A stretch of DNA of 64,000 bases. Origin: Escherichia coli (GTDB lineage Bacteria; Pseudomonadota; Gammaproteobacteria; Enterobacterales; Enterobacteriaceae). The position numbers and the translations under genes were made by a program. Below, in pieces: positions 738 to 63,878 of the stretch; the stretch's first letter is position 1; every line of letters starts with the position of its first letter. The stretch lies in assembly GCF_024223415.1 (NCBI RefSeq), contig NZ_CP100500.1, one strand, 5' to 3'. The notes under the pieces were generated by a model. It did no database searches. It was not told where the DNA came from and saw only the letters and a list, made by a program, of their open reading frames with translations.

Positions 738-3050
738 ATGCCTCGCTTGTTAACCAAACGCGGCTGCTGGATAACGCTGGCAGCTGCGCCCTTTCTCCTT
801 TTTCTTGCAGCGTGGGGAGCAGATAAACTCTGGCCTCTACCGCTGCATGAAGTCAATCCCGCACGAGTGGTCGTGGCGCAGGATGGTACGCCGCTCTGGC
901 GCTTCGCCGATGCTGACGGCATCTGGCGTTATCCTGTAACAATCGAAGATGTTTCTCCACGTTACCTTGAAGCGCTGATCAATTATGAAGATCGCTGGTT
1001 CTGGAAGCATCCGGGGGTGAATCCATTCTCGGTGGCGCGCGCAGCATGGCAAGATCTCACTTCGGGACGGGTTATTTCCGGTGGCAGCACGCTCACTATG
1101 CAGGTTGCTCGTCTGCTTGATCCTCACCCCAAAACATTTGGCGGCAAAATTCGCCAGCTCTGGCGCGCGTTGCAACTGGAGTGGCATTTGTCTAAGCGTG
1201 AAATTCTGACCTTGTATCTTAACCGCGCTCCGTTTGGCGGTACGTTGCAGGGGATCGGTGCGGCAAGTTGGGCTTATCTCGGAAAGTCGCCTGCGAATTT
1301 AAGCTATTCCGAGGCGGCAATGCTGGCGGTTTTGCCGCAAGCGCCCAGCCGTCTTCGCCCGGATCGTTGGCCGGAGCGTGCCGAAGCCGCGCGTAATAAA
1401 GTGCTCGAACGGATGGCCGTGCAAGGTGTGTGGTCCCGTGAGCAGGTAAAAGAGTCAAGGGAAGAACCCATCTGGCTGGCACCCCGACAAATGCCGCAAC
1501 TTGCACCGCTGTTTTCGCGCATGATGCTCGGTAAAAGCAAAAGCGACAAAATCGTTACTACGCTGGATGCCGGTCTTCAACGACGTCTGGAAGAACTGGC
1601 GCAAAACTGGAAAGGACGTTTACCACCGCGCAGCTCACTGGCGATGATCGTGGTTGATCATACCGATATGCGTGTTCGCGGCTGGGTGGGATCGGTAGAT
1701 CTCAACGATGATTCACGCTTTGGTCATGTTGATATGGTCAATGCGATCCGATCGCCAGGGTCGGTGCTCAAACCGTTTGTTTACGGTCTGGCGCTGGATG
1801 AAGGCTTGATCCACCCGGCATCACTGCTGCAAGACGTCCCCCGGCGCACCGGTGATTATCGACCAGGTAACTTTGATAGCGGTTTTCATGGCCCGATCAG
1901 CATGAGCGAGGCGCTGGTGCGCTCGCTGAATTTACCTGCTGTGCAGGTACTGGAAGCCTATGGACCGAAACGGTTTGCGGCAAAGTTACGCAATGTTGGA
2001 TTGCCGTTATATTTGCCCAACGGTGCTGCGCCGAATCTTTCGCTCATTCTCGGCGGCGCTGGTGCAAAACTGGAAGATATGGCGGCAGCGTATACCGCGT
2101 TTGCTCGCCACGGCAAGGCAGGCAAATTGCGCTTACAGCCTGACGATCCGCTGCTTGAACGGCCTTTAATATCGTCGGGGGCTGCGTGGATCATTCGCCG
2201 GATTATGGCTGATGAAGCGCAACCCTTGCCGGATGGTGCCTTGCCGCGTGTCGCTCCACTGGCATGGAAAACGGGCACCAGCTATGGCTATCGTGACGCC
2301 TGGGCGATTGGGGTTAACGCTCGCTATGTCATTGGGATCTGGACTGGCAGACCGGACGGCACGCCCGTTGTTGGTCAGTTTGGTTTTGCCAGCGCCGTAC
2401 CATTGTTGAATCAGGTCAATAATATCTTACTGTCGCGCAGTGCTAATCTGCCGGAAGACCCGCGCCCGAACTCAGTCACTCGTGGCGTTATCTGCTGGCC
2501 GGGCGGACAGTCTTTGCCGGAAGGTGACGGTAACTGTCGCCGCCGCCTGGCAACCTGGCTGCTGGACGGGAGTCAGCCGCCAACTCTATTACTGCCGGAG
2601 CAGGAAGGCATTAATGGCATTCGTTTCCCCATCTGGCTGGATGAAAATGGCAAACGTGTTGCCGCTGATTGCCCGCAAGCGCGACAAGAAATGATAAATG
2701 TCTGGCCGCTACCGCTGGAACCCTGGTTGCCCGCATCAGAACGTCGCGCTGTGCGCTTACCACCGGCCTCGACAATTTGCCCGCCATACGGTCACGATGC
2801 CCAGCTCCCGCTGCAGCTGACAGGCGTTCGCGATGGCGAGATTATTAAACGTTTACCGGGCGCAGCGGAAGCGACTTTGCCGTTGCAATCAAGTGGAGGG
2901 GCAGGTGAACGCTGGTGGTTTCTGAATGGCGAACCGTTAACTGAACGCGGGCGCAACGTGACCCTGCATTTGACGGATAAAGGTGATTATCAATTGCTGG
3001 TGATGGATGACGTAGGGCAAATCGCGTCAGTACATTTTTCATTTCAGTGA
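738..3050 (+). CDS. pbpC: Penicillin-binding protein 1C (peptidoglycan glycosyltransferase)
   Basis: 770-aa ORF with ATG at 738 directly after the yfhM stop; length and sequence match PbpC. Confidence 0.9.
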   Translation: MPRLLTKRGCWITLAAAPFLLFLAAWGADKLWPLPLHEVNPARVVVAQDGTPLWRFADADGIWRYPVTIEDVSPRYLEALINYEDRWFWKHPGVNPFSVARAAWQDLTSGRVISGGSTLTMQVARLLDPHPKTFGGKIRQLWRALQLEWHLSKREILTLYLNRAPFGGTLQGIGAASWAYLGKSPANLSYSEAAMLAVLPQAPSRLRPDRWPERAEAARNKVLERMAVQGVWSREQVKESREEPIWLAPRQMPQLAPLFSRMMLGKSKSDKIVTTLDAGLQRRLEELAQNWKGRLPPRSSLAMIVVDHTDMRVRGWVGSVDLNDDSRFGHVDMVNAIRSPGSVLKPFVYGLALDEGLIHPASLLQDVPRRTGDYRPGNFDSGFHGPISMSEALVRSLNLPAVQVLEAYGPKRFAAKLRNVGLPLYLPNGAAPNLSLILGGAGAKLEDMAAAYTAFARHGKAGKLRLQPDDPLLERPLISSGAAWIIRRIMADEAQPLPDGALPRVAPLAWKTGTSYGYRDAWAIGVNARYVIGIWTGRPDGTPVVGQFGFASAVPLLNQVNNILLSRSANLPEDPRPNSVTRGVICWPGGQSLPEGDGNCRRRLATWLLDGSQPPTLLLPEQEGINGIRFPIWLDENGKRVAADCPQARQEMINVWPLPLEPWLPASERRAVRLPPASTICPPYGHDAQLPLQLTGVRDGEIIKRLPGAAEATLPLQSSGGAGERWWFLNGEPLTERGRNVTLHLTDKGDYQLLVMDDVGQIASVHFSFQ

Positions 3051-3144
3051 AATATACAAAATATTTATTAATCTAATTATGGTATTTATATTTGGAATGC
3101 ATTAATAATTTAATAATCTCACGTTTTTTTAAACGACTAATTAT

Positions 3145-3158
3145 TTGATTGTTATCAG
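3145..3158 (+). promoter_or_regulatory. Putative FNR binding site TTGAT-tgtt-ATCAg upstream of the DmsA-like operon
   Basis: 9 of 10 matches to the FNR consensus TTGATnnnnATCAA, centred about 62 nt upstream of the ATG at 3214 in an AT-rich intergenic region. Confidence 0.5.
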
Positions 3159-3213
3159 CATTGTTCTCGAATAAATACGTGAATATTTATTTTTTCATTT
3201 TCGGGAACGCAAG

Positions 3214-5595
3214 ATGGATACGCCAGACGAAAAGGAACGCATTACATTTCCGCAAGTATCACGACGTAGTTTTTTACAAGCGACTTCCGCGCTTATCACT
3301 TTGCCTTTTATTTCTTCTACCGCAAAGGCGCAATCCCCAGATGCGTCGCCAGAAGTTACAGCTCCAGTAGCTGATAAAGTCGTGCCCACCTGTAGCACAT
3401 TTGACTGCGGTGGTAAGTGCGATATTCGGGCGCATATGCGCGACGGCGTGGTGACGCAAATTACCACACTTCCCGATAACGAACTCGATTCACAAATGCC
3501 GATTATGCGCGCCTGTGTTCGTGGTCGCGGCTATCGTAAATTTGTTTATCATCCTGACCGTTTGAAATATCCGATGAAGCGGGTAGGTAAACGAGGGGAG
3601 GGAAGATTTGAGCGTATCTCATGGGATGAGGCGACGACCTTAATTGCCGATAAACTGAAAAGGATCACGCAACAATATGGCCCGGCTTCACGTTATGTCC
3701 ATGTCGGGACGGCTGTTTCTGGTGGAACATTTTCTGGCGATGCGATGGCGCGTCGGCTGTTAAATTTAACCGGTGGTTATCTTGAATATTATCACTCAGT
3801 TAGTCTGGGTAATACTGCGGCCGCCACGCCTTACACGTATGGCGTGGCGGCCAGCGGTAACTCGATGGATACTCTTCTGGATACCAAACTGGTGATCCTC
3901 TGGGGGCATAACCCAACGGAAACCATATTCGGTCACACCAATTACTATTTTCAAAAAATGAAGCAAAACGGTACACGTTTTATCGTGGTGGATCCGCGCT
4001 ATTCCGACACCGTATCTTCACTTGCCGATCAGTGGATCCCGCTGTTGCCGACCACGGACAATGCGTTGATGGACGCGATGATGTACGTCATTATCAGCGA
4101 GAATCTCCACGATAAGACATTTATCGACACATATATTCTCGGTTTTGATGAAAACTCTATGCCAGAAGGCGTACCAGCCAACGAATCGTTGGTTGCCTAC
4201 CTTTTTGGCGCAAAAGATGGGATACACAAAACGCCGGAATGGGCAGAAAAAATTACCCACGTTCCAGCACAATCCATTCGTCAACTGGCACGCGATTACG
4301 CCACTACAAAACCCGCAGCGTTGATTCAGGGATGGGGGCCACAGCGACATATTTGCGGCGAACGCACCGCCCGAGGTTCAACTTTACTGGCCTCGATTAC
4401 CGGTAACGTCGGCATCAAAGGTGGCTGGGCGGCAGGTTACGGCGGTAGTTCTAATCGTAAATTCTGCGTTGGACCAGATATGCCAGAAAATCCGGTACAA
4501 GCGAAAATCTCGATTATGAACTGGATGCAGGCGGCGGATGATGCTTCTAAAGTTACGCCGCAAGATGGGCTTAAAGGTGTCGATAAACTCGACAGTAATA
4601 TCCGCCTGCTGTTCTCACTGGCAGGTAATTATCTGGCGAACCAGAACCCGGACGTCCACCAGGCCGCGAAGCTCCTTGAAGACGAATCTAAAATAGAATT
4701 CATCGTACTCAGCGATCTGTTCATGACTCCGAGCGCGAAATATGCCGATGTGTTGCTGCCGGAAACCAGCTTTATGGAACGCTGGAATATCGGCGAAACA
4801 TGGGGAACTGCGAGCTATCTTATTCTGTCAGAAAAACTGATTGAGCCGGATTTTGAACGTCGCACCGATTATGACTGGTTGCGTGACGTGGCGAAAAAAC
4901 TGGGTGTCGAAGCCGAGTTCAGTCAAGGACGTGATGAGAAGCAATGGATCGAGCATATCTGGGAGCAAACTCGTCTGGCGATGCCGGATGAAAATTTGCC
5001 GGACTTCGCGACCCTGCAAAAAACACGTCGACATCTTTTCAAAAGCGCGCCGCACATCGCTTTCGAAGCAAATATTCGCGATCCGCAGAATAATCCTTTC
5101 CCGACGCCTTCCGGCAAAATTGAGATCTTCTCTAAGCGTCTTTTTGATATGCAAGATCCAGAAATTCCCGCGCTTTCGCACTATGTCCCTGCCTTTGAAG
5201 GGCCAGAAGATAAACTGACGGCGAAATACCCGCTGCAGCTCATCACCTGGAAAGGGAAAAACCGTGCTAATTCCACCCAGTATGCTAACCCGTGGCTGCA
5301 AGAAGTTCAGACGCAAAAACTCTGGCTGAATCCGCAAGATGCAAAACAGCGCGGGATTAGCGAAGGAGATAGCGTAAAAATTTATAACGATCGTGGTGTG
5401 AGCATTATCCCGGTGGAAATAACCCCCCGTATCATCCCTGGCGTAGTTGCTATGCAGGCGGGGGCATGGTGGCAACCGGATGCACAAGGTATCGATCGCG
5501 GAGGCTGTGCCAATGTACTGAGTTCGACCCGCATTACGGCGCTGGCGAAAGGGAATTCGCATCAAACAATGCTGGTGGAGGTTGAGAAAGCATGA
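3214..5595 (+). CDS. Tat-exported molybdopterin oxidoreductase catalytic subunit, DMSO reductase family (DmsA/YnfE-like), substrate unknown
   Basis: 793-aa ORF with twin-arginine motif SRRSFLQ near the N-terminus, then a CxxxxCxxxC...C cysteine cluster typical of DmsA-type FeS sites; stop overlaps the next start (ATGA at 5592-5595). Confidence 0.85.
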   Translation: MDTPDEKERITFPQVSRRSFLQATSALITLPFISSTAKAQSPDASPEVTAPVADKVVPTCSTFDCGGKCDIRAHMRDGVVTQITTLPDNELDSQMPIMRACVRGRGYRKFVYHPDRLKYPMKRVGKRGEGRFERISWDEATTLIADKLKRITQQYGPASRYVHVGTAVSGGTFSGDAMARRLLNLTGGYLEYYHSVSLGNTAAATPYTYGVAASGNSMDTLLDTKLVILWGHNPTETIFGHTNYYFQKMKQNGTRFIVVDPRYSDTVSSLADQWIPLLPTTDNALMDAMMYVIISENLHDKTFIDTYILGFDENSMPEGVPANESLVAYLFGAKDGIHKTPEWAEKITHVPAQSIRQLARDYATTKPAALIQGWGPQRHICGERTARGSTLLASITGNVGIKGGWAAGYGGSSNRKFCVGPDMPENPVQAKISIMNWMQAADDASKVTPQDGLKGVDKLDSNIRLLFSLAGNYLANQNPDVHQAAKLLEDESKIEFIVLSDLFMTPSAKYADVLLPETSFMERWNIGETWGTASYLILSEKLIEPDFERRTDYDWLRDVAKKLGVEAEFSQGRDEKQWIEHIWEQTRLAMPDENLPDFATLQKTRRHLFKSAPHIAFEANIRDPQNNPFPTPSGKIEIFSKRLFDMQDPEIPALSHYVPAFEGPEDKLTAKYPLQLITWKGKNRANSTQYANPWLQEVQTQKLWLNPQDAKQRGISEGDSVKIYNDRGVSIIPVEITPRIIPGVVAMQAGAWWQPDAQGIDRGGCANVLSSTRITALAKGNSHQTMLVEVEKA

Positions 5596-6221
5596 GCCAA
5601 TTTAAAGAATTTGCATCTGTCAGCGACAAACAATTAGGGTTCTTTATTGACTCTTCGCGTTGTTCGGGCTGTAAAGCGTGTCAGGTGGCCTGTAAAGACA
5701 AAAACAACCTTGAGGTTGGGCGACGTTTTCGCCGCGTGTATGAAGTGAACGGCGGTGGCTTCATCGCCACTGGAGAGGGCGGTGTGAGTCATAATGTCTT
5801 TGCTTATACCCTTTCTGTTTCCTGTAACCATTGCGCGGATCCGATCTGTACCAAAAATTGCCCGACGATAGCGATGCATAAGCGTCCCGGAGACGGCATT
5901 GTGCGCGTGAATACTGATAAGTGCGTCGGTTGCGGTTACTGCGCCTGGTCCTGTCCTTACGGCGCACCACAAATGAATGAGCAGACCGGGCAGATGTCGA
6001 AATGCGATTTCTGTATTGATCTGCAAGCTAAAGGAGAACAACCCATTTGCGTGGCAACGTGCCCGTTGGGGGCGATTAAGTTCGGCCCTATTGATGAGTT
6101 GCGTGAAAAGTATGGCGATGTCAGTGATGTGAAAGGTTTACCTGATTCGTCGATTACGCAGCCAAATCTGGTGATTAAACCGCATCAGGGCGCGGAAAAG
6201 GAGGCGTCACATCATGCATGA
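5592..6221 (+). CDS. Four-cluster 4Fe-4S ferredoxin electron-transfer subunit (DmsB-like)
   Basis: 209-aa ORF with several CxxCxxCxxxCP motifs; translationally coupled to both neighbours. Confidence 0.85.
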   Translation: MSQFKEFASVSDKQLGFFIDSSRCSGCKACQVACKDKNNLEVGRRFRRVYEVNGGGFIATGEGGVSHNVFAYTLSVSCNHCADPICTKNCPTIAMHKRPGDGIVRVNTDKCVGCGYCAWSCPYGAPQMNEQTGQMSKCDFCIDLQAKGEQPICVATCPLGAIKFGPIDELREKYGDVSDVKGLPDSSITQPNLVIKPHQGAEKEASHHA

Positions 6222-7035
6222 ATTACCGTTAATGGCTTTTACGCTGTTGTTACAGGCATCGGTCGGTATGACGTTGTGGCTGGCGTTTCTTCATCGTCAT
6301 ATTTTAATCACCTCCAGCGCCCGCCCGGTTATGCGGCCGCCATTACTGTTGGCTTTTTTGGCAGGTGCCGTAGGGTTACTAATTTCTACCTTACATCTGG
6401 GTTATCCACTTAATGCGATGCATGCGCTAAGCCACTTTTCCAGTTCATGGCTGAGTCGGGAAATTATCTTTGGTGCGCTGTATCTGGCGCTATTGGGTTT
6501 ATCCACATTACTGGTCATGTTACGCAAAGGCGGCTGGCAACTCCTGCTTATGCTAGCGGCAGTGGTCGGGATTGTTGATGTTTTCTGCATGGCGCAAGTT
6601 TACATCCATACGTCGATTATCACCTGGCAGCATTACAACACACTGATTATGTTCTTAGGTACAGTGGGAATTCTCGGTTCAGCGCTGGTAGCAGTGTTTC
6701 GTATTAGCGGAATTTTGCCGCAGATTGATGCCCTGCGTAATGGATGCGTGTTGGTGATCGCTCTCCTGGTTCTGTTGCGTTTGTTGGTTCAGCCGTTGTG
6801 GATAGGGGATTTAACGGCAAATGCGATGCAGATAGCCACATTGCCACATGCGCCATTAGCGATGCTGGGACAGTTAAAACCCATACTGACACTAAGCTGG
6901 GGAATTTCCGTCATTGGGATGATGTTCTTTGCTGTCGGTGGTTGTAAAAAGAATATCCCGGCGGCGTTATTCGGTAGCGTAATGCTAGTGGGGAGTGAAG
7001 TTATGCTGCGTTTTGTCTTTTTTAGTATCGGCTAA
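6214..7035 (+). CDS. Polytopic membrane anchor subunit (DmsC-like)
   Basis: 273-aa highly hydrophobic ORF, overlaps the upstream gene by 8 nt and the downstream gene by 1 nt (TAATG); position matches the DmsC role. Confidence 0.7.
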   Translation: MHELPLMAFTLLLQASVGMTLWLAFLHRHILITSSARPVMRPPLLLAFLAGAVGLLISTLHLGYPLNAMHALSHFSSSWLSREIIFGALYLALLGLSTLLVMLRKGGWQLLLMLAAVVGIVDVFCMAQVYIHTSIITWQHYNTLIMFLGTVGILGSALVAVFRISGILPQIDALRNGCVLVIALLVLLRLLVQPLWIGDLTANAMQIATLPHAPLAMLGQLKPILTLSWGISVIGMMFFAVGGCKKNIPAALFGSVMLVGSEVMLRFVFFSIG

Positions 7036-7889
7036 TGTTAAGTCATAACATAACGATTGGCGCGGAATGCGCGCGCCAACGCTTTCGTTTTGCAACATGT
7101 CATGCCTGTGTCGAGGCTTGCCCGGCACAGGCGCTAACGCTGACAGAAGAGGGCATAGCGGTCGACGCGGAACAATGTATTGAGTGTGCGGTTTGCCAGT
7201 TTATTTGTCCGCAAGAGGCTATTCGTGGCGTTAATTCCCCTTTACGTTATTTTCGCAATCACACCCTGGTCGCACCTTTCACCACTATTGCGCCGACGCT
7301 GGAAGAACTTTTGCTATGGCATAAAGAGCAGGGGATCACAGCGATCGCGATTGATCTGAGTCAGGCGAAGGCATGGGAGCGCGCATTATTGCTGTTAAAC
7401 GAACGCTTACGGCAATATGGCGAGGAAGGCTGGTCTGTGGTATCTCCACATACCAGTGAGGTGAATGTTTCCCGGCGTCGTTTGTTCCATGTGCAGCGTG
7501 CGGATGTTCAGATGATACAAATACAACCAGGATTACGTCGGTTACATTATTTTTGGCCCCAGATTAGTGATGCTCGCCCGATGATGGATCCTCAAAAGTG
7601 TCAGCTTTGCGGTGCATGCTGGCGGGCCTGCGAGCAACAGGTCTTTTCGCTTAACGAAGGCCATTTACAAATCAATGATGCCTTGTGTAACGGATGCCAA
7701 AATTGTATTGCTGTTTGTTTTCATCAGGCAATGACCGTTGAATTGACAATTCTACCTGCAAAAATTGTGAATCTTCATGCTAATCGCAAAGTCTGTAAAA
7801 CCTGTCAAAAATCCTTTCTTACTTTTCAGCAAAATGCGCAAAATTGTCTTTATTGCCAACGTCATCGCTATGGGATGAGAGCACCATAA
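7035..7889 (+). CDS. Cytoplasmic ferredoxin-like protein with four Cys clusters and a C-terminal CxxC...CxxC pair
   Basis: 284-aa ORF without signal peptide; motifs CHACVEACP, CIECAVCQFICP, CQLCGACWRAC, CNGCQNCIAVC and a terminal CKTC...CLYC; coupled to the anchor gene. Confidence 0.7.
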   Translation: MLSHNITIGAECARQRFRFATCHACVEACPAQALTLTEEGIAVDAEQCIECAVCQFICPQEAIRGVNSPLRYFRNHTLVAPFTTIAPTLEELLLWHKEQGITAIAIDLSQAKAWERALLLLNERLRQYGEEGWSVVSPHTSEVNVSRRRLFHVQRADVQMIQIQPGLRRLHYFWPQISDARPMMDPQKCQLCGACWRACEQQVFSLNEGHLQINDALCNGCQNCIAVCFHQAMTVELTILPAKIVNLHANRKVCKTCQKSFLTFQQNAQNCLYCQRHRYGMRAP

Positions 7890-8029
7890 AAGTCGAGTTG
7901 TTGCTAAAACTCATTTTATTTTAAAAAAATGTTACCTTCATCAATAGTCAACGGCCCTGTTGCTCATTATAATCCGCGCCATCTCGTACGCTGGTACAGA
8001 CAACAACAGAACAATTTACAGAGGTAAAA

Positions 8030-8461
8030 ATGGCTATTGAACGTACTTTTTCCATCATCAAACCGAACGCGGTAGCAAAAAACGTCATTGGTAATATCTT
8101 TGCGCGCTTTGAAGCTGCAGGGTTCAAAATTGTCGGCACCAAAATGCTGCACCTGACCGTTGAACAGGCACGTGGCTTTTATGCTGAACACGATGGAAAA
8201 CCGTTCTTTGATGGTCTGGTTGAATTCATGACCTCTGGCCCGATCGTGGTTTCCGTGCTGGAAGGTGAAAACGCCGTTCAGCGTCACCGCGATCTGCTGG
8301 GCGCGACCAATCCGGCAAACGCACTGGCCGGTACTCTGCGCGCTGATTACGCTGACAGCCTGACCGAAAACGGTACCCACGGTTCTGACTCCGTCGAATC
8401 TGCCGCTCGCGAAATCGCTTATTTCTTCGGCGAAGGCGAAGTGTGCCCGCGCACCCGTTAA
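8030..8461 (+). CDS. ndk: Nucleoside diphosphate kinase
   Basis: 143-aa ORF beginning [15 protein letters not shown], recognised as Ndk. Confidence 0.95.
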
Positions 8462-8522
8462 TAATTTCGTAAATGCCGCGTGCAAACGTGGCATCCGTGC
8501 GCCAGAATTTGTACAATGCAGC

Positions 8523-8563
8523 GCCCCCGGACGAGCAGCCGCTCACCGGGGCGTTTCTTTTTT
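8523..8563 (+). terminator. Putative rho-independent terminator downstream of ndk
   Basis: Inverted repeat CCCCCGG...CCGGGG followed by TTTCTTTTTT. Confidence 0.5.
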
Positions 8564-8610
8564 CAACCCTCCAGGGGCCATAACGTGTAATAACGAGGCC
8601 GGAATAGCAT

Positions 8611-9765
8611 ATGTCTGAACAATTAGTCACACCTGAAAACGTCACCACCAAAGATGGAAAAATCAACCTGCTGGATCTCAATCGTCAGCAGATGCGGGAG
8701 TTTTTTAAAGATTTAGGTGAAAAACCCTTCCGCGCCGATCAGGTGATGAAGTGGATGTATCACTATTGCTGCGACAATTTTGATGAGATGACTGACATCA
8801 ACAAAGTGTTGCGCGGCAAGCTGAAAGAGGTGGCGGAAATCCGCGCACCGGAAGTGGTTGAAGAACAGCGTTCATCTGACGGCACCATTAAATGGGCGAT
8901 TGCCGTGGGTGACCAGCGTGTCGAAACGGTGTACATCCCGGAAGACGACCGCGCTACGCTCTGCGTCTCTTCGCAGGTGGGGTGTGCGCTGGAGTGTAAA
9001 TTCTGTTCCACCGCCCAGCAGGGCTTTAACCGCAACCTGCGGGTGTCGGAAATTATCGGCCAGGTGTGGCGTGCGGCGAAAATCGTCGGCGCAGCAAAAG
9101 TCACCGGTCAGCGCCCAATCACTAACGTAGTGATGATGGGCATGGGCGAGCCGCTGCTCAACCTGAACAACGTCGTTCCGGCGATGGAAATCATGCTTGA
9201 TGATTTCGGTTTTGGCCTGTCTAAACGTCGCGTGACGCTTTCCACTTCCGGTGTAGTTCCAGCGCTGGATAAACTGGGCGATATGATCGATGTTGCGCTG
9301 GCAATTTCCCTGCACGCGCCGAACGACGAAATTCGTGACGAAATTGTGCCGATCAACAAAAAGTACAATATCGAAACGTTCCTTGCTGCGGTGCGCCGTT
9401 ATCTGGAGAAATCCAACGCCAATCAGGGCCGAGTCACTATTGAATACGTGATGCTTGACCACGTTAACGACGGCACTGAACACGCTCACCAACTGGCGGA
9501 ACTGCTGAAAGATACGCCGTGTAAGATCAACCTGATCCCGTGGAACCCGTTCCCGGGCGCACCGTATGGACGCAGCTCGAACAGCCGTATCGACCGTTTC
9601 TCAAAAGTGCTGATGAGCTACGGTTTCACCACTATTGTGCGTAAAACGCGTGGTGATGATATCGATGCTGCCTGTGGTCAGTTGGCGGGCGATGTTATCG
9701 ACCGTACGAAACGTACCCTGCGTAAACGGATGCAGGGTGAAGCCATCGACATTAAAGCGGTCTGA
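8611..9765 (+). CDS. rlmN: 23S rRNA m2A2503 / tRNA m2A37 radical SAM methyltransferase
   Basis: 384-aa ORF recognised as RlmN (YfgB), with the CxxxCxxC radical SAM motif. Confidence 0.95.
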
Positions 9766-22582: not shown

Positions 22583-23101
22583 TTAGCTCTTTTCAGGACA
22601 TTTGGTATTTGGCTGAATACGCGTTTCGTTATACGTCGTGGTAATAACAACGGCTAAACCTGTCGTAAACTGGCACTCTTTACCCACCTGAGTAGAGGTA
22701 TACACTTTGGTGCCTTCCTTATACGTTAAAGAAACACCTTCCACTAAGGTTTTATCATTCACCATAGAACCCGCTGCCGCGCCTACAGCTCCGCCGCCAA
22801 CTGCACCTGCCGTCGTTCCGGAATTGCTGCCAGACCCGACGTTGTGGCCGATAACACCGCCAGCGACTGCGCCAATAAGCGCGCCGAAGGCTTGTGCGTT
22901 CCGTTTATTTTGGGAGTTGTCTACGGCAACTTTTGCGGGAAGAATGGAAATAATATTAACGGTTTTAGTTTCTTGTTTGGTATTCAGTTGATCGGTTTGA
23001 TAAACATCGGCAGCATGATCGTCAGCATTTGACTGGCATCCTGCCAGAGTGAATGACGCTAACATTGCCACAGGTAGAAGACATTTTTTAAATTTCATCA
23101 C
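22583..23101 (-). CDS. yfgH: Outer membrane lipoprotein YfgH (glycine-zipper)
   Basis: 172-aa ORF with lipoprotein signal (LAGC) and Gly-rich GxxxG tract. Confidence 0.85.
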   Translation of the reverse strand: MMKFKKCLLPVAMLASFTLAGCQSNADDHAADVYQTDQLNTKQETKTVNIISILPAKVAVDNSQNKRNAQAFGALIGAVAGGVIGHNVGSGSNSGTTAGAVGGGAVGAAAGSMVNDKTLVEGVSLTYKEGTKVYTSTQVGKECQFTTGLAVVITTTYNETRIQPNTKCPEKS

Positions 23102-23411
23102 TATTCCTTGTTATACACATTACGAAAAATAAGACATTTAAGATCATCAAAAGAGGAAAGTAAATGTATTGCGTATAAAGGGATAGATTAAATTTATTAA
23201 AATTCACGCAGGGAATAATTTATAAAAATATATCATTACAACATATATATTAATTTTATATTTATTTCGCAGCCAAACAGGATAAACATCAGTCAGGACA
23301 AAGACGTAAAATTTAAGATGAAAGAATATCTGCCGCTTTGATAATCCCAAAGAGCAAAAGCATCCGACAGCGAAGTGCCGTTATGTTCTGTGAAAGTGGA
23401 GAAGGTAACCG

Positions 23412-23603
23412 CTAACGTTGTACCGGTGATTCGACGGAGAGTGTGGATTGCTGAGCTTCTTTTTTGCTCTGATGGTGCTGCCAGGCACCGACGGACGAGT
23501 AGATAAAACGGCCAAAGAAGAAGATAAAGCTGATGAGCAGTACGATACGGGTCATGCGACTGTTAAATCGGTGTCGTTTTCGCATACTGGTTGCCTGACT
23601 CAC
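23412..23603 (-). CDS. yfgG: Small membrane protein YfgG
   Basis: 63-aa ORF with one hydrophobic segment, at the conserved position between yfgH and pdeF. Confidence 0.7.
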   Translation of the reverse strand: MSQATSMRKRHRFNSRMTRIVLLISFIFFFGRFIYSSVGAWQHHQSKKEAQQSTLSVESPVQR

Positions 23604-23813
23604 AAAAGGTTCCTTGAAGTATGTCCCACGCTGTGGACGGTACTTACATTAAGGCACAACAGGACAAAATGGTCAATTCTTCGTTATGTAAAAAAGCGTC
23701 AGTGGATACATATTTTAATGTTATGGAAGTTAATTTAATTATTTACAATGATGATGTAATAATGATGAATTAACATGATAAACGTAATAATTCATTAATC
23801 AGGGTTATTTTGT

Positions 23814-23827
23814 TTGATATATATCAA
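23814..23827 (+). promoter_or_regulatory. FNR consensus site TTGAT-atat-ATCAA upstream of pdeF
   Basis: 10 of 10 match to TTGATnnnnATCAA, about 135 nt upstream of the pdeF ATG. Confidence 0.55.
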
Positions 23828-23954
23828 TTGGAACTTTCATATGACACTTAGAATCAATGCTCTCTATAGTGATGAATAATCATCATTCGAAGTCAGGTGG
23901 GATGCCTGTCTGAATACACCTCCTTCAGGATGTGGGGGATTCTGCTGAGCATCT

Positions 23955-26198
23955 ATGAAACTGAATGCAAATTATATAAAAATACGTGATAAATGGTGGG
24001 GGCTTCCGCTGTTCCTGCCTTCTTTAATCTTGCCCGTTTTCGCCCACATTAATACTTTCGCGCATATTTCTTCCGGTGAGGTTTTTCTCTTTTATCTGCC
24101 TTTGGCACTGATGATCAGCATGATGATGTTTTTCAGCTGGGCGGCATTGCCAGGGATCGCCTTAGGGATTTTTGTCCGCAAATATGCAGAGCTTGGTTTT
24201 TACGAAACGCTCTCATTAACGGCTAATTTTATTATCATTATCATTCTCTGTTGGGGCGGTTACAGGGTCTTTACTCCCCGGCGTAACAACGTTTCACATG
24301 GTAATACCCGTTTAATTTCCCAGCGTATATTCTGGCAGATTGTGTTTCCTGCAACGCTGTTTCTGATACTTTTCCAGTTTGCTGCGTTTGTAGGATTACT
24401 GGCGAGCAGAGAAAATCTGGTCGGCGTCATGCCTTTTAACCTCGGGACCTTAATCAATTATCAGGCCTTACTGGTGGGCAATCTGATTGGTGTCCCGCTG
24501 TGCTACTTCATCATTCGGGTAGTTCGAAATCCGTTTTATTTACGTAGTTATTATTCGCAATTAAAACAGCAGGTTGATGTCAAAGTCACCAAAAAAGAGT
24601 TCGCGCTCTGGCTACTGGCATTAGGTGCTTTACTATTGCTGTTATGCATGCCGTTAAATGAAAAAAGCACAATTTTTAGTACCAATTATACCTTGTCATT
24701 ATTGCTGCCCCTGATGATGTGGGGAGCGATGCGCTATGGTTATAAGCTGATTTCACTGCTCTGGGCGGTCGTGTTGATGATCAGCATCCACAGCTATCAA
24801 AATTACATTCCCATTTATCCTGGCTATACCACGCAGCTGACCATAACCTCCTCAAGTTATCTGGTATTCTCTTTTATTGTCAATTATATGGCTGTACTGG
24901 CAACCCGTCAGAGAGCGGTAGTCAGACGTATTCAACGGCTTGCGTATGTGGACCCGGTGGTTCATCTGCCAAATGTTCGCGCCCTGAATCGCGCGTTGCG
25001 TGATGCCCCCTGGTCTGCGCTTTGTTATTTACGCATCCCTGGCATGGAAATGCTGGTTAAAAACTATGGCATCATGCTGCGGATTCAATACAAGCAAAAA
25101 CTTTCTCACTGGCTGTCACCATTGCTGGAACCGGGTGAAGATGTTTATCAGCTTTCGGGTAACGATCTCGCGCTGCGACTGAATACAGAATCGCACCAGG
25201 AGCGCATTACCGCACTGGATAGCCATCTCAAGCAATTTCGTTTCTTTTGGGATGGCATGCCGATGCAACCGCAGATTGGCGTCAGTTACTGCTATGTGCG
25301 CTCGCCAGTGAATCATATCTACCTGCTGCTGGGAGAGCTAAATACGGTCGCCGAACTTTCCATCGTGACCAACGCCCCGGAAAATATGCAGCGTCGCGGG
25401 GCAATGTATTTGCAACGCGAATTGAAAGATAAAGTCGCGATGATGAATCGACTACAGCAGGCGCTGGAACACAACCATTTTTTCCTGATGGCCCAGCCGA
25501 TTACCGGTATGCGTGGTGATGTTTACCATGAAATTCTTCTGCGCATGAAAGGTGAGAATGATGAACTGATCGGCCCCGATAGCTTCTTGCCGGTCGCGCA
25601 CGAATTTGGTTTATCGTCGAGTATCGACATGTGGGTCATTGAGCATACGCTGCAATTTATGGCTGAAAACAGAGCGAAGATGCCCGCTCACCGTTTTGCT
25701 ATTAATCTGTCTCCAACCTCGGTATGCCAGGCTCGTTTTCCTGTTGAAGTCAGTCAGCTGCTGGCTAAATATCAGATTGAAGCGTGGCAACTTATTTTTG
25801 AAGTCACCGAAAGTAATGCTCTGACCAATGTTAAGCAGGCGCAAATCACCTTGCAGCATCTTCAGGAATTAGGCTGCCAGATTGCGATTGATGATTTCGG
25901 CACCGGCTACGCCAGCTATGCGCGGCTTAAAAATGTGAATGCCGATCTGCTTAAAATTGACGGCAGTTTTATCCGCAATATTGTGTCAAATAGTCTGGAT
26001 TATCAGATAGTGGCATCGATTTGCCACCTGGCGCGAATGAAGAAAATGCGGGTAGTGGCAGAGTACGTTGAAAACGAAGAGATCCGCGAGGCGGTGCTCT
26101 CTTTGGGGATCGATTATATGCAGGGTTATCTTATTGGTAAGCCGCAGCCGTTAATTGATACGTTGAATGAAATCGAACCCATTCGCGAAAGTGCCTGA
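23955..26198 (+). CDS. pdeF: Cyclic di-GMP phosphodiesterase PdeF (YfgF), MASE1-GGDEF(degenerate)-EAL
   Basis: 747-aa ORF with multi-TM N-terminal half and C-terminal EAL-type region. Confidence 0.9.
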   Translation: MKLNANYIKIRDKWWGLPLFLPSLILPVFAHINTFAHISSGEVFLFYLPLALMISMMMFFSWAALPGIALGIFVRKYAELGFYETLSLTANFIIIIILCWGGYRVFTPRRNNVSHGNTRLISQRIFWQIVFPATLFLILFQFAAFVGLLASRENLVGVMPFNLGTLINYQALLVGNLIGVPLCYFIIRVVRNPFYLRSYYSQLKQQVDVKVTKKEFALWLLALGALLLLLCMPLNEKSTIFSTNYTLSLLLPLMMWGAMRYGYKLISLLWAVVLMISIHSYQNYIPIYPGYTTQLTITSSSYLVFSFIVNYMAVLATRQRAVVRRIQRLAYVDPVVHLPNVRALNRALRDAPWSALCYLRIPGMEMLVKNYGIMLRIQYKQKLSHWLSPLLEPGEDVYQLSGNDLALRLNTESHQERITALDSHLKQFRFFWDGMPMQPQIGVSYCYVRSPVNHIYLLLGELNTVAELSIVTNAPENMQRRGAMYLQRELKDKVAMMNRLQQALEHNHFFLMAQPITGMRGDVYHEILLRMKGENDELIGPDSFLPVAHEFGLSSSIDMWVIEHTLQFMAENRAKMPAHRFAINLSPTSVCQARFPVEVSQLLAKYQIEAWQLIFEVTESNALTNVKQAQITLQHLQELGCQIAIDDFGTGYASYARLKNVNADLLKIDGSFIRNIVSNSLDYQIVASICHLARMKKMRVVAEYVENEEIREAVLSLGIDYMQGYLIGKPQPLIDTLNEIEPIRESA

Positions 26199-31774: not shown

Positions 31775-32020
31775 AGACTGCTTTACACAACCTTTTTGCA
31801 CGTCTTTTCCCCAGGCGCGCGGCGAAAGAAGACTTGTGCCAGGGCAAAGGTTAGTTTTCGGATGGAATAATCTTCTTTCATAACCATTTGAATATAAAAT
31901 AACTTTATCTCAAACCGTTATCATTTTGACTAAAGTCAACGAAAATAATATTGCCGCCTTGAAGAAAGGAGGTATAATCCGTCGATTTTTTTTGTGGCTG
32001 CCCCTCAAAGGAGAAAGAGT

Positions 32021-34911: not shown

Positions 34912-35438
34912 TGAACTGCACCCCAAATGTTGGACATAATCTGACATCTGAAGGTGCAGTTTATGAAACATTCATTTGAAGTAAAACTTGCCGCTGTAAA
35001 TCATTACCTGGCCGGTCATGCAGGCATCATTTCTACGGCAAAACTCTTTCAACTTTCTCACACCAGCCTCTCACACTGGATTAATCTTTTTCTTCTTCAC
35101 GGTCCTCAGGCACTGGATTGCAGACACAAGCGTAGCTATTCTCCTGAAGATAAACTTTGCGTGGTTCTTTATGCTCTCGGGCATTCTGAGTCTCTACCCC
35201 GGGTAGCTGCCCGGTTTAACATTCCCAGCCACAACATGGTTAAAAACTGGATAAAAGGCTACCGCAAATCTGGTAATGAGGCCTTTATCAGGCGCAGGAA
35301 GGAGAAAAGCATGACCCGTTCTGATGATACCCATGAAAACGAGGCAAACATGACGCCGGAAGAGATGAAGAATGAGCTGCGTTATCTTCGCGCAGAAAAT
35401 GCATATCTGAAAGCCATGCAGGAGCATCTCCTGGAAAA

Positions 35439-36343
<905 letters not shown>

Positions 36344-44174: not shown

Positions 44175-45890
44175 TTACTTCAGCGGCGAACGGTTACGAT
44201 CAATGCCGTAGCGTTCGATCTCTTTATACGGCACGGTTTTTGACTGGCGCTTGCGCACATCAACCAGCGTCACACGGTCGGTACAGGAGTAGCAGGGATC
44301 AAGGCTACCGATAATCAGCGGTGCGTCAGAAACGGTATTGCCGCGTAGCATGTAACGCAGCACCGGCCAGTTGGCGTAGGTGGCGGCACGACAGCGCCAG
44401 CGGAACAATTTTTGATTATCACCGAGCATGCTCCAGTGCACGTCTTCACCGCGTGGCGCTTCAACAAAGCCGAGTGCGAATGCGTGAGGTTTATAGCTAA
44501 AGCCTTCGGTCAGCAGCGGGGTATCCGGCATGTTGTCGAGGGCAAATTCCAGCATTGCCAGCGAATCAAACGTCTCTTTGACACGGACCATCACGCGGGA
44601 GAAGACATCGCCGCCGGTAAAGGTAAACAGTGTTTTTGGAATATTGCCGTAGTCGGCGTAGGGGTGATCAAAGCGCAAATCACGGGCAAAACCACTGCCG
44701 CGGATCAGCGGTCCTACGGGGCTATAATCACGGGCGATTTGTCGGTCGAGAATGCCAATGCCCTGAGTGCGTTGTTCCATATTCGGCGTGGCAAGCAGCA
44801 TTTCTACCAGCTCCGACACGTCGGCGCGCATCTCGCGCACCAGTTTCAGCGTTTGCAGACGTTGCTCTTTGAGAATATCGCGGCGAACACCACCAATCAG
44901 ATTCAGACCGTAGGTTTTACGCGACCCGGTCAGCAATTCCGCCATTGTCATCGACTTTTCCCGCACGCGGAAAAATTGCATAAAGCCGGTATCAAATCCA
45001 ACAAAATGGCAGGAGAGGCCAAGGTTGAGCAAATGACTGTGTAGCCGTTCGACTTCCAGCAGAATCGAGCGAATGGTATGCGCTCGTTGCGGCACCTCAA
45101 TCCCCAGTGCATTTTCAACCGAGTTGGTATAGGCCACACTGTGGGCAAAACCGCAAATCCCACACACGCGGTCCGATAAGAAGGTCACTTCGTTGTAGCC
45201 CATCCGCGTTTCTGCCAGTTTCTCCATGCCGCGATGGACATAAAACAGGCGGTAATCAGCATCGACAATTTGCTCGCCATCCACAAACAAGCGGAAGTGA
45301 CCCGGTTCATCGGAGGTGATATGCAGCGGGCCGACAGGGATCACCCGCGCATCGCTGTTGCCCTCATTGATAAACGGATACGTTTCGGAATCAGTCGTCG
45401 GTTCAGGGCGCAGTCGATAATCCATCGCATCTTTGCGCAGCGGATGCATATCTTCCGGCCAGTCATCGGGCAACACCAGGCGACGCTGATCCGGCAGGCC
45501 AACCGGAATCAGCCCGTACATATCGCGAATTTCTCGCTCGCCCCAGACCGCGGCAGGGACGCGCGGTGTGACTGACGGAAACTCCCGACTGTCGGCATCG
45601 ACCAGTGCCTTCACCACGATCCAGCATTTTTCGGCCCCTTCCATAGAAAGGGCATAATAAACCGCGTAATGACCGTTAAGTGTCCGCTCGTCGTTGCCAA
45701 ACAGGACCGGAAGCCAGCCATCATGTTGATAATAAAGATACTGTACAACGTCAGGCAGCAGATTGATTTTCACCGTAATGGTGACCTGTTCAGGCGTTTG
45801 TCGCTCTTCATCCAGCACCGCGCCGGGGAACTGCGTTTTCAGGGCGGCGAGAATCGCTTCGCCACGATTTGACGATGAATTAACGTTCAC
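44175..45890 (-). CDS. hyfG: Hydrogenase-4 large (NiFe) subunit
   Basis: NuoC/NuoD-like fusion with C-terminal DPCxxC; start placed at the GTG at 45890 preceded by GGAGA; the ORF-track ATG at 45935 has no Shine-Dalgarno. Confidence 0.85.
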
Positions 45891-57626: not shown

Positions 57627-57854
57627 ATGGAAACTACTGTATTTTTAAGTAATCGCAGTCAGGCCGTCAGATTACCGAAAGCGGTCGCTCTGCCAGAGGA
57701 TGTTAAGAAAGTAGAAATTATTGCGATTGGTCGTACAAGAATCATCACTCCCGCCGGTGAGTCCTGGGACAGTTGGTTTGATGGCGAAAATGTGAGTGCG
57801 GATTTTATGGATATCCGTGATCAACCCGCAATGCAGGAAAGGGAATCATTCTGA
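57627..57854 (+). CDS. vapB: VapB antitoxin (AbrB/SpoVT-type DNA-binding fold)
   Basis: 75-aa product from METTVFLSNRSQAVRLPKAV with a strong GGGGG Shine-Dalgarno; stop overlaps the vapC start (TGATG). Confidence 0.8.
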   Translation: METTVFLSNRSQAVRLPKAVALPEDVKKVEIIAIGRTRIITPAGESWDSWFDGENVSADFMDIRDQPAMQERESF

Positions 57855-58252
57855 TGCTGAAATTCATGCTGGATACCAATATCTGTATTTTCACTATTAA
57901 GAATAAACCAGTACATGTCAGAGAGCGGTTTAACCTGAATTCTGGCCGGATGTGTATAAGTTCTGTAACATTGATGGAGCTTATCTATGGGGCAGAAAAA
58001 AGTCAGATGCCAGAACGCAATTTGGCGGTGATTGAAGGTTTCGTATCTCGTTTGGAAGTGCTTGATTATGATAGTGCTGCTGCGACGCATACTGGGCAAA
58101 TCAGGGCCGAGCTTGCCCGGCAGGGAAGGCCTGTTGGACCTTTTGACCAGATGATAGCGGGACATGCTCGCAGTCGCGGTTTGATTGTGGTTACCAACAA
58201 TACCCGAGAGTTTGAGCGAGTGGCGGGAATCAGACTAGAAGATTGGAGCTAA
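57854..58252 (+). CDS. vapC: VapC PIN-domain ribonuclease toxin
   Basis: 132-aa ORF starting MLKFMLDTNICIF with conserved acidic PIN residues; closely resembles the enteric VapC/MvpT family as I recall it. Confidence 0.85.
   Translation: MLKFMLDTNICIFTIKNKPVHVRERFNLNSGRMCISSVTLMELIYGAEKSQMPERNLAVIEGFVSRLEVLDYDSAAATHTGQIRAELARQGRPVGPFDQMIAGHARSRGLIVVTNNTREFERVAGIRLEDWS

Positions 58253-63503: not shown

Positions 63504-63878
<375 letters not shown>

Follow-up and report, generated by a model that had tools for sequence, protein, structure and literature searches.

An AT-rich stretch at the border of a DmsABC-like operon and ndk in Escherichia coli: the tail of the fourth operon gene and the conserved ndk upstream region

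In Salmonella Typhimurium, a third dmsABC-like operon, STM2530-STM2527, encodes DmsA-, DmsB-, and DmsC-like proteins and carries a fourth gene; no role was found for STM2530 in DMSO-dependent growth, and STM2530-2527 was suggested to have been gained after the split from Escherichia (bioRxiv 10.1101/2022.11.29.517730). An operon of the same four-gene architecture, referred to here as ABCD, is present between pbpC and ndk in the 64-kb stretch of E. coli DNA analyzed in this study (the window). A literature search by EDL933 and Sakai locus tags and by gene names returned nothing informative except the Salmonella preprint. In the DmsABC and YnfEFGH systems of E. coli, the accessory protein is a DmsD/YnfI-type chaperone without an Fe-S cluster. 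The product of the fourth window gene, a 284-aa Fe-S protein, is unlike it. A further point of comparison is provided by the strain-specific O157:H7 segments absent from K-12, which are known as O-islands. Like these, the 4.85-kb segment of the window occupies a fixed chromosomal site in EDL933 and other O157:H7 and O55:H7 strains and is absent from K-12, but it lacks mobile-island hallmarks and is syntenic across genera. A more fitting description of this O157:H7-type DmsABC-like operon, whose Fe-S fourth gene is unusual, is that of an ancestral enterobacterial operon since lost, most likely by deletion, from most E. coli.

The DmsABC-like operon and its site

Gene A (3214-5595, + strand) encodes a catalytic molybdopterin subunit of the DmsA/YnfE subfamily that scored 1124.9 bits against TIGR02166 (cut-off 777.7), and its N-terminus, reading ...PQVSRRSFLQATSALITLPF..., contains the twin-arginine signal SRRSFLQ. 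Gene B (5592-6221, +) encodes a DmsB-type 4-cluster Fe-S subunit (TIGR02951, 265.6 bits; cut-off 214.1), and gene C (6214-7035, +) a DmsC-type membrane anchor (Pfam PF04976 DmsC, 84.4 bits; cut-off 22.3), so that all three resemble the subunits of E. coli DmsABC and YnfEFGH. Against the models for DmsA, YnfF, and YnfE themselves, A scored 706, 694, and 670, respectively, far below the cut-offs of 1600, 1650, and 1675, and it is therefore a separate paralogue. Judged by the subunit models, ABCD is a DmsABC-like operon of the DMSO/selenate reductase family. The upstream region (3051-3213, +) is very AT-rich (GC 0.22) and holds an FNR-type box, TTGATTGTTATCAG (3145-3158), in which TTGAT-N4-nTCA was invariant in 7 loci from at least 5 genera. 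Gene coordinates were remapped from the annotation of NCTC10444, since this record and the window are set apart by an IS insertion and by 1 nt in the length of a homopolymer.

Gene D (7035-7889, +), annotated in RefSeq as "4Fe-4S dicluster domain-containing protein," comprises two ferredoxin-type dicluster domains, a middle domain, and a C-terminal Cys4 motif. Only Fer4-type domains were matched in a Pfam search, and neither an N-terminal signal nor a twin-arginine motif was evident in the protein. The CxxCxxCxxxC(P) pairs (C48/51/54/58, and C189/192/195/199 with C218/221/224/228) were invariant in 13 homologues. Of the C-terminal 2x[4Fe-4S] ferredoxin domain, which is predicted from Fer4-family matches and cysteine motifs, the distal half is encoded by the last 85 codons (7635-7889), together with an invariant CxxC...CxxCxxHxxGM(R) motif, and the Cys pattern of this part was retained in the 13 homologues down to 32% identity. 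The structure model of D had a pLDDT of 76, with PDB matches (HycF and FwdF) only to the ferredoxin parts.

The order yfhM-pbpC-ABCD-ndk-rlmN-rodZ was found to be kept in Citrobacter, Pseudocitrobacter, Enterobacter sp., Lelliottia, and Huaxiibacter, as well as in two Salmonella subspecies (arizonae and diarizonae) and two other Escherichia lineages; the survey of genome contigs relied on a single peptide pattern and returned 10 loci. In Salmonella arizonae and diarizonae, the operon occupies the same pbpC-ndk slot, with identities to the window proteins of 83% for A, 86 to 87% for B, 51% for C, and 38 to 40% for D. Compared with Citrobacter, A and B were 88 to 89% identical at the amino acid level and pbpC 86%. 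Since site and order are the same across genera and A and B have diverged like pbpC, the site is taken to be ancestral and the operon-less allele to be likely a deletion; on these grounds, together with the lack of mobility genes and flanking repeats and the ordinary codon usage described below, the operon is judged not to be foreign DNA. Synteny also argues for an operon already present in the common ancestor of Salmonella and Escherichia and against a gain after the split, and such ancestral presence would correct the history suggested for STM2530-2527.

Among complete E. coli genomes, the operon was detected in 379 of 5,426 (7%), mainly O157:H7 and O55:H7 strains, and always on the chromosome in a single copy. 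The same 970-nt pbpC-ndk span was present in each of 26 operon-less genomes picked from across the ranking. In strain ZF8-1, IS1 has deleted a segment reaching from early in A to within D, and this deletion was counted as support for ongoing operon loss. As to the direction of the indel within the species, we infer that the operon-less allele is most likely derived, by deletion. Sequence diversity within the species was 0.5 to 3.3% for the operon and 0.2 to 2.4% for its flanks. Between pbpC and ndk, only reductase subunits A to D were found, with no mobility genes and no tRNA or att sequences at the operon borders. A repeat search over 2900-8200 detected no repeats bracketing 3051-7897, the sole pair near both ends (I1; 3108-3133 and 7920-7945) being a 73% A/T-tract match. 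Genes A, B, and C had GC values of 0.48 to 0.50 and GC3 values of 0.50 to 0.52, and codon usage was typical of the window for both A (scaled chi-square 0.076, among the most typical) and B (0.177). Thus, of the features of a mobile island, a patchy distribution was observed, while mobility genes, repeats, atypical composition, and absence or relocation in relatives were not.

Composition of the stretch and the operon boundary

The hand-counted GC values of the preliminary description were accurate, with 0.317, 0.350, and 0.383 for the 60-nt lines at 7741, 7801, and 7861 and 0.550 for the line at 5401. The GC content of 7740-7920 was 0.354, compared with a mean of 0.518 for the 64-kb window (standard deviation 0.054 in 181-nt windows), and only 1.2% of all 181-nt windows were as low or lower. 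The trough was found to be wider than first noted, extending over about 470 nt (7635-8104; GC 0.381). Several other intergenic regions in the window were equally low or lower, among them 2908-3330 (minimum 0.215) and 22914-24007 (minimum 0.20). The AT-rich stretch is ordinary and of little importance in itself. It consists of two adjacent but unrelated low-GC segments, the tail of gene D (7635-7889) and the ndk upstream region (7898-8029), which are separated by the presence/absence boundary of the operon (7890-7897); on the right, the trough ends in a shoulder made up of the first 25 codons of ndk (GC 0.40).

This right-hand boundary is an operon-specific 8-nt spacer, AAGTCGAG (7890-7897); the match to K-12 and UTI89 picks up again at 7898, which is 8 nt beyond the stop codon of D. 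In place of 3051-7897, K-12 carries 16 nt (TCTGTTTTGTCCCTGA). On the left, the operon-linked difference extends to the last 8 codons of pbpC (3027-3050, +), which are haplotype-specific and differ from K-12 at 12 of 24 nt; elsewhere in its last 851 nt, pbpC is >99% identical. The same pbpC tail haplotype was found in Escherichia sp. E1V33 and MOD1-EC7003. The 50% divergence of these 24 nt and the mosaic divergence of E1V33 also fit allele transfer between Escherichia lineages by homologous recombination.

The preliminary description had regarded the composition drop as consistent with a junction of horizontal acquisition. Alignment with operon-less genomes, the check it proposed, did place the right boundary inside the interval, but the AT-richness was not found to mark horizontally acquired DNA. 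Sliding GC and codon-usage analysis, proposed likewise, confirmed the local drop and found the GC of A to C and the codon usage of A and B to be ordinary, with only the D tail atypical. Where a strain-specific segment ends, a local fall in GC does not by itself point to foreign DNA; of the present dip, one half is core sequence, a conserved predicted promoter, and the other would have evolved in place.

The tail of gene D and the ndk upstream region

The last 85 codons of D (7635-7889, +) had a GC content of 0.380 and a GC3 of 0.29 to 0.31, compared with 0.517 and 0.49 in the first 200 codons, and GC1 and GC2 were also lower (0.49 and 0.35 versus 0.60 and 0.46). The low GC exceeds what chance would give: with a GC3 of 0.306, the tail was the lowest of 13,961 in-frame 85-codon windows from the 55 annotated genes of the window. 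Its drop relative to the gene body was the largest among 45 genes (dGC3 -0.182, dGC -0.128), the other genes averaging 0.000 +/- 0.050 and -0.002 +/- 0.031, respectively. In a simulation, the amino acids of the tail predicted a GC of 0.451 against an operon mean of 0.499, and the observed value was 0.385 (P = 0.0003). Amino acid content explains about 40% of the drop; what remains is due to an AT-biased choice among synonymous codons (P about 0.0003), a feature peculiar to Escherichia. Where four orthologues had the same amino acid, the codons had a GC3 of 0.29 in E. coli and 0.45 to 0.58 in the others.

The drop in tail GC was strongest in Escherichia, being common to all E. coli carriers examined and both other Escherichia lineages. 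Several orthologues displayed a smaller drop, and it was absent in Salmonella, Enterobacter sp. RIT418, Enterobacillus, and Chimaeribacter; the Salmonella tail differs in not being AT-rich, with GC values of 0.59 to 0.60 and GC3 values of 0.60 to 0.65. The FYMINK fraction of the tail was 0.28 in Escherichia and 0.11 to 0.15 in Salmonella, Enterobacter, Lelliottia, Huaxiibacter, and Chimaeribacter; over the body of the gene it was uniform. The richness in Lys, Asn, and Gln is specific to Escherichia and would thus seem to follow from AT pressure on the DNA, not to cause it. Pseudogene decay of D was rejected on dN/dS values of 0.10 to 0.14 overall and 0.07 to 0.10 in the tail, the latter indicating purifying selection. 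We infer that the shift reflects unselected AT-biased drift at synonymous and tolerant sites, although such mutational drift does not explain its confinement to the last ~250 nt of one gene.

The second segment (7898-8029, +; GC 0.364), a predicted promoter and leader, is 100% identical to K-12 and is core sequence: all 5,425 E. coli genomes that matched have it, whether they carry the operon or not. It was also conserved in six other genera, the invariant blocks, as compared in 10 sequences representing 7 genera, beginning precisely at TGTTGC, and the spacer between D and ndk was AT-rich in every genus examined (GC 0.35 to 0.41). The segment contains a sigma-70-type promoter-like site, TAGTCA-17 nt-TATAAT (7945-7973, +), followed by a GC-rich CCGCGCC. 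This site agrees with the consensus at 10 of 12 positions, a match that is weak alone, as the consensus scan returned 2 sites in the region versus 1.6 expected. Across the 10 sequences, TATAAT and the downstream CCGCGCC were invariant and ATAG(T/G)CAA was conserved. Upstream of the -35 hexamer lies an A/T-tract block, AAAACTCATTTTATTTTAAAAAAA (7906-7929, +), which is nearly invariant across genera and appears to resemble an UP element. A GC-rich discriminator and a Shine-Dalgarno sequence are among the elements of the segment, and the consensus match together with the conservation suggests that 7898-8029 serves as the ndk promoter. In its hexamers, 17-nt spacing, A/T block, and cross-genus conservation, the region is similar to AT-rich sigma-70 promoters with upstream A/T tracts; the conserved upstream block is, however, longer than a canonical UP element. 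The gene for nucleoside-diphosphate kinase, ndk, follows at 8030-8461 (+), as supported by Pfam (NDK, 3.4e-56) and the RefSeq annotation.

No intrinsic terminator (GC-rich hairpin and T run) was found between the D stop codon and ndk in 7890-8029; a sole terminator-like match, at 7624-7644, lies inside D and was dismissed, the count being at chance level. The predicted folding of 7860-8035 was no more stable than that of shuffled sequences (z = 0.48), and an Rfam search of 2900-8700 at E <= 1 returned no structured RNA match. A small open reading frame of 32 codons ending just before ndk (7929-8027) was rejected as a gene, as the frame ends elsewhere in Citrobacter and conservation tracks the promoter blocks and not the codons.

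Origin of the AT-rich stretch

Composition, boundaries, synteny, selection on D, and lineage specificity were all directly observed. The stretch is probably best understood as an ndk promoter and leader and an in situ AT-shifted D tail that meet at the edge of an ancestral operon's deletion polymorphism. Both shifts in the tail, in amino acids and in synonymous codons, would have arisen in situ on the Escherichia branch in a protein under purifying selection. A single deletion is the most likely origin of the operon-less majority of E. coli, and it would have stopped exactly at the conserved ndk regulatory block, cuts into the ndk promoter presumably being selected against; the boundary would coincide with the AT-rich zone because the deletion stopped there.

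The preliminary description had also allowed that the low GC could simply reflect a Cys/Lys/Asn-rich C-terminus. This held in part, as the amino acids do lower the predicted GC, GC1 and GC2 fall in the tail, and several orthologues display a smaller drop. As a sufficient explanation it was refuted by the GC3 and simulation results, and amino acid composition as the whole cause is extremely unlikely: the observed GC lies far under the amino acid prediction, GC3 at conserved-amino-acid codons is lower than in the orthologues, the Cys residues are also invariant in GC-rich lineages with tail GC values of 0.60 to 0.66, and the enrichment in Lys, Asn, Gln, and Ile is specific to Escherichia. Import of the 3' end of D as a mosaic segment from an AT-richer donor is scarcely credible. 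The abrupt drop in GC3 near codon 200 and a dS versus L004 that is highest in the tail (2.0) would suit it, but relatives rank alike for tail and body (MOD1 > L004 > L009/Citrobacter > the rest), identity to L004 is 68% in the tail versus 73% in the body, and the low GC is found in every E. coli carrier as well as in the two other Escherichia lineages; a mosaic origin was rejected on the identity ranking. It is also distinctly unlikely that the AT-richness of the tail was selected at the DNA or RNA level, as an H-NS-type nucleoid-protein site or as a Rho-dependent termination or insulation zone before the ndk promoter. Such selection would account for a shift that is highly localized, extreme, and fixed in all Escherichia carriers examined, and it is consistent with the missing intrinsic terminator, the AT-richness of the opposite operon end, and a rut-like 78-nt window from 7908 (C/G = 2.33, top 0.4% of the + strand). 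That C-rich window, however, lies in the core region, outside the tail; in E. coli lacking the operon, the end of pbpC that precedes the same ndk promoter has a normal GC, and the Salmonella and Enterobacter orthologues have no AT tail. The H-NS high-affinity motif TCGATAAATT, allowing <=2 mismatches, was matched neither in the D tail nor in 3000-3220, its single match being at 8013 on the minus strand. The A/T tracts have no helical phasing: DNA curvature was rejected, as AA/TT periodicity had its sole peak at 9.0 nt and not at 10 to 11 nt; being a multiple of the codon period, this peak is a codon artefact. One doubtful form of this idea is that the tail and the C-rich, G-poor block upstream of ndk might act together as a Rho or nucleoid-protein zone insulating a constitutive ndk promoter from read-through of an anaerobic operon, a need that would vanish in lineages with the operon deleted.

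With respect to the operon as a whole, the reading of the AT-rich stretch as the compositional scar of a horizontally acquired island between pbpC and ndk is very unlikely, having been largely refuted by synteny. It would agree with the operon's occurrence in only 7% of complete E. coli genomes, the presence/absence boundary at 7890-7897, the AT-richness of the variable segment at both ends (GC 0.22 at 3051-3213 and 0.38 at 7635-7889), and operon gene GC3 values of 0.43 to 0.52, in the lower half of the local range. Against it, at least seven genera have the operon at this position and in this order, the divergence of A and B resembles that of flanking core genes, no integrase, transposase, tRNA, or flanking repeat was found, A has one of the most typical codon usages of the window, core DNA also present in operon-less strains makes up half of the trough, and the AT shift of the tail arose inside Escherichia and was not imported. 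A re-acquisition is unlikely as well. In this scenario, the operon would have been lost in the E. coli ancestor and have come back into carriers such as the O157:H7 lineage through homologous recombination with a sister Escherichia lineage, the crossovers lying in the pbpC tail and the ndk upstream block and the interval being the recombinational junction. The divergent last 24 nt of pbpC, operon-linked in E. coli, E1V33, and MOD1-EC7003, the mosaic divergence of E1V33 (0 to 5.6% over the operon versus blocks of up to 15% in yfhM/pbpC), and the 100% identity of the right flank to K-12 from 7898 on are in keeping with this. The donor would be a close relative with the operon at the same site, and re-acquisition would therefore leave the AT-richness unexplained. 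In three divergent E. coli carriers, moreover, the diversity of the operon equals that of its flanks, which fits long residence.

Extent of the AT-rich trough

The stretch from 7740 to 7920 had been flagged in a preliminary description as AT rich and as a possible horizontal-acquisition junction. The underlying counts were borne out, with GC contents of 0.317, 0.350, and 0.383 in the 60-nt lines compared with 0.550 in a control line at 5401. The interval had a GC content of 0.354 (window mean, 0.518), with only 1.2% of 181-nt windows equally low, and the trough was wider than first described, spanning about 7635 to 8104 at a GC content of 0.381. On its left lie the last 85 codons of gene D (7635 to 7889; the D tail), whose GC3 was the lowest among 13,961 85-codon windows from 55 annotated genes. 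Among 45 genes, D also showed the largest drop between tail and body (first 200 codons), with z scores near -3.6 (GC3) and -4.1 (GC). The AT richness was confirmed and is statistically unusual.

Gene D (7035 to 7889), encoding a 4Fe-4S dicluster protein of 284 aa, is the last gene of a DmsABC-like operon on the plus strand. It is preceded by genes for a DmsA/YnfE-subfamily molybdoenzyme with a twin-arginine signal (A, 3214 to 5595), a DmsB-type Fe-S subunit (B, 5592 to 6221), and a DmsC-type membrane anchor (C, 6214 to 7035). Upstream are the 3' end of yfhM (alpha2-macroglobulin, last position 737) and pbpC (penicillin-binding protein 1C, 738 to 3050); downstream are ndk (nucleoside-diphosphate kinase, 8030 to 8461) and the core genes rlmN, rodZ, and ispG. 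The chromosome of E. coli NCTC10444 was 100% identical over 2700 to 8500; across the full 64 kb, 13 substitutions, a single homopolymer length difference, and a 1.4-kb insertion separated it from the window, which is E. coli chromosomal DNA and thus stems from a very close relative.

Operon boundary and origin

Alignment to the operon-less strains K-12 MC4100 and UTI89 did place a boundary within the flagged interval. In both strains, 3051 to 7897 (4,847 nt) was replaced by 16 nt, and identity restarted at 7898 (TTGTTGCTAAAA...), 8 nt past the D stop codon, continuing as a perfect K-12 match as far as the ndk start codon (8030). The interval therefore straddles 150 nt of D coding sequence (GC, 0.367), an operon-specific spacer of 8 nt, and the opening 23 nt (GC, 0.217) of the core region that precedes ndk in every E. 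coli (132 nt; GC, 0.364). At the other edge, 12 of 24 nt in the last eight pbpC codons (3027 to 3050) differed between operon-bearing and operon-less E. coli, with the remaining pbpC >99% identical. Both versions had equal length and the xVxFxxQ* pattern of Citrobacter, and two old pbpC-end haplotypes seem to coexist, linked to operon presence or absence. In E. coli NCTC9100 (NZ_LR134239.1), just the final 49 nt of the 2700 to 8500 query matched, and a larger deletion or rearrangement may have removed the pbpC end and ndk.

The operon was carried by 379 of 5,426 complete E. coli genomes, mostly O157:H7 and O55:H7 with scattered animal and environmental isolates, always as a single chromosomal copy. 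The order yfhM-pbpC-ABCD-ndk-rlmN-rodZ was also found in Citrobacter freundii, Pseudocitrobacter faecalis, Enterobacter sp., Lelliottia sp., Huaxiibacter chinensis, Salmonella enterica subsp. arizonae and diarizonae, and two further Escherichia lineages. Compared with Citrobacter, A (88.5% identity) and B (89.5%) diverged in step with the flanking pbpC (86.2%) and rlmN (93.6%); the faster genes C and D had amino acid identities of 62% and 52%. Among divergent E. coli carriers, operon diversity of 0.5 to 3.3% matched the 0.2 to 2.4% of flanking genes. A search of the locus for mobility genes and bracketing repeats found none, and composition spoke against acquisition as well, with ordinary GC in A, B, and C and ordinary codon usage in A and B. 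In 26/26 operon-less genomes drawn from across the ranking, the pbpC-ndk span measured 970 nt, which would fit a single deletion allele. Synteny, codivergence, the lack of mobility signs, and the uniform span together argue that the operon is most likely ancestral at this site in Enterobacteriaceae and its absence derived. The deletion stops exactly where the conserved ndk regulatory block begins, as expected if damage to the ndk promoter is selected against. A separate and recent operon loss is the IS1-associated deletion in E. coli ZF8-1 (NZ_CP178597.1), where IS1A (3152 to 4326 of that locus) has taken the place of everything between about codon 36 of A and about codon 180 of D, so that only the final 315 nt of D remain.

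A different history within E. coli, in which the operon was lost and homologous recombination with a sister lineage of Escherichia later restored it, would account for the 50% divergence between the two haplotypes over the last 24 nt of pbpC and for the mosaic divergence from Escherichia sp. E1V33, and was considered improbable next to ancestral presence with deletion. Under either history, the AT richness is no signature of foreign DNA. Of the proposed acquisition junction, the boundary thus stands, but a foreign-DNA scar is opposed by the synteny, the codivergence, and the absence of mobility genes and repeats.

The ndk upstream region and the D tail

The ndk upstream region was aligned for 10 sequences representing seven genera, among them the operon-less K-12. 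Conservation started exactly at TGTTGC and comprised an A/T-tract block (7906 to 7929), an ATAG(T/G)CAA block, the invariant TTATAATCCGCGCC, the block AACAACAGAAC, and an AGAGGT Shine-Dalgarno sequence. A consensus scan matched TAGTCA-17-TATAAT at 7945 to 7973 in 10 of 12 positions, and the D-ndk spacer was AT rich (GC, 0.35 to 0.41) in all genera examined. Because of these blocks, the consensus match, and the AT-rich spacer, we infer a promoter function for the right half of the trough, which would represent the ndk regulatory region. The D-ndk gap was also searched for intrinsic terminators, Rfam families, and unusually stable folds, and none was found. Between 7908 and 7985 lies the region's most C-rich, G-poor stretch of 78 nt, whose C/G ratio of 2.33 falls in the top 0.4% for the plus strand of the window; it resembles a rut site, overlaps the conserved putative ndk promoter, and is also present without the operon.

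The left half encodes genuine protein sequence under constraint. The dN/dS of the D tail was 0.07 to 0.10, and in protein D the ferredoxin dicluster cysteines (C189/192/195/199 and C218/221/224/228) and the C-terminal motif C254-x2-C257...F261...C271-x2-C274-x2-H277-x2-G280-M281 did not vary among 13 homologues with identities as low as 32%. The preliminary description had offered a Cys/Lys/Asn-rich C terminus as an alternative cause of the low GC, which holds in part. Against an operon reference of 0.499, a GC content of 0.451 was expected from the tail amino acid sequence with operon codon usage, and 0.385 was observed, a value reached in 3 of 10,000 simulations; roughly 40% of the drop is thus attributable to amino acid content, with synonymous codon choice responsible for the remainder. 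GC3 was about 0.29 to 0.31 in the tail versus 0.49 in the body, and at tail codons with identical amino acids in four orthologues it was 0.29 in E. coli versus 0.45 to 0.58 in the other three.

Across 14 orthologous loci, the drop was strongest in E. coli and two other Escherichia lineages (tail GC3, 0.31 to 0.33), intermediate in a 71%-identical relative (L004), Pseudocitrobacter, Lelliottia, and Huaxiibacter, small in Citrobacter and locus L009, and absent in Salmonella, Enterobacter sp. RIT418, Enterobacillus, and Chimaeribacter. Tail FYMINK was 0.28 in E. coli versus 0.11 to 0.13 in Salmonella, and GARP was 0.19 versus 0.29, with usage in the body uniform across lineages. The joint shift of synonymous and nonsynonymous sites suggests that the pressure acted on the DNA rather than the protein. 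A low-GC tail (0.376 to 0.388) was common to all E. coli carriers examined. Tail and body ranked the relatives identically, so there was no sign of mosaic import of the tail; by these comparisons, the AT shift is peculiar to Escherichia and evolved in situ. Phased A-tracts and an H-NS consensus site were looked for in the tail and not found. What underlies the trough is a set of annotated genes plus an unremarkable promoter region; the part left over is a localized synonymous AT shift at one gene end.

Synonymous divergence from L004 climbed steadily along 738 to 7889 (pbpC, 0.58; A, 0.89; B, 1.02; C, 1.51; D, 1.36; D tail, 2.0); no comparable gradient was seen against Escherichia sp. MOD1-EC7003. 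C and D outpace A and B in evolution, yet with dN/dS of about 0.1.

Operon relatives and other features of the window

A, B, and C passed family-level models of the DMSO/selenate reductase family. A fell well under the curated cutoffs for DmsA, YnfE, and YnfF and is therefore a separate paralogue. Among described systems, Salmonella STM2530-STM2527 is the closest; no role in DMSO-dependent growth was found for it, and its acquisition after divergence was suggested (bioRxiv 10.1101/2022.11.29.517730); the synteny found here argues against such an acquisition. Within 3051 to 3213 (GC, 0.22), an FNR-type box (TTGATTGTTATCAG, 3145 to 3158) lies about 56 nt 5' of the A start codon. Its TTGAT-N4-nTCA pattern was invariant in seven orthologous loci, with a perfect box (TTGATAAATATCAA) in Salmonella arizonae, and this conservation suggests anaerobic, FNR-dependent expression. 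No sigma-70 consensus promoter was found around the box in 3051 to 3213.

Protein D fell into no named family past generic Fer4 domains, and its predicted model (pLDDT 76) matched solved structures via ferredoxin modules only (e.g., HycF and the FwdF polyferredoxin). A profile search gave 76 cluster representatives at E <= 1e-30. D and its homologues (P0001 to P0166) make up a family whose members are about 285 aa long. They carry as many as four [4Fe-4S] motifs, the C-terminal Cys4-His motif, and between these a conserved domain (EELLLWH...W...LN...W...RR) that no Pfam model covers; no N-terminal signal or twin-arginine motif was evident in the family. D is encoded next to a Tat-exported DmsAB-type enzyme.

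The insertion missing in NCTC10444 (1,432 bp, 34912 to 36343, between hda and arsC) carries two overlapping open reading frames (176 and 240 aa) resembling IS3-family orfA/orfB transposase. The T run 5' of upp (31986 to 31993), a tract where the upp promoter undergoes UTP-sensitive reiterative transcription, reads T8 in the window versus T9 in NCTC10444, and a homopolymer sequencing error in one assembly may be responsible. The NCTC10444 record annotates hyfF (about 45883 to 47460) as an incomplete pseudogene. Other strong low-GC segments were the yfgH-yfgG-pdeF intergenic area (22914 to 24135; minimum, 0.20), the window end near acrD (63709 to 64000; down to 0.238), and 57786 to 58442 (minimum, 0.38), close to a vapBC toxin-antitoxin pair whose GC3 (0.41 to 0.46) was among the lowest in the window and whose codon usage was the most atypical.
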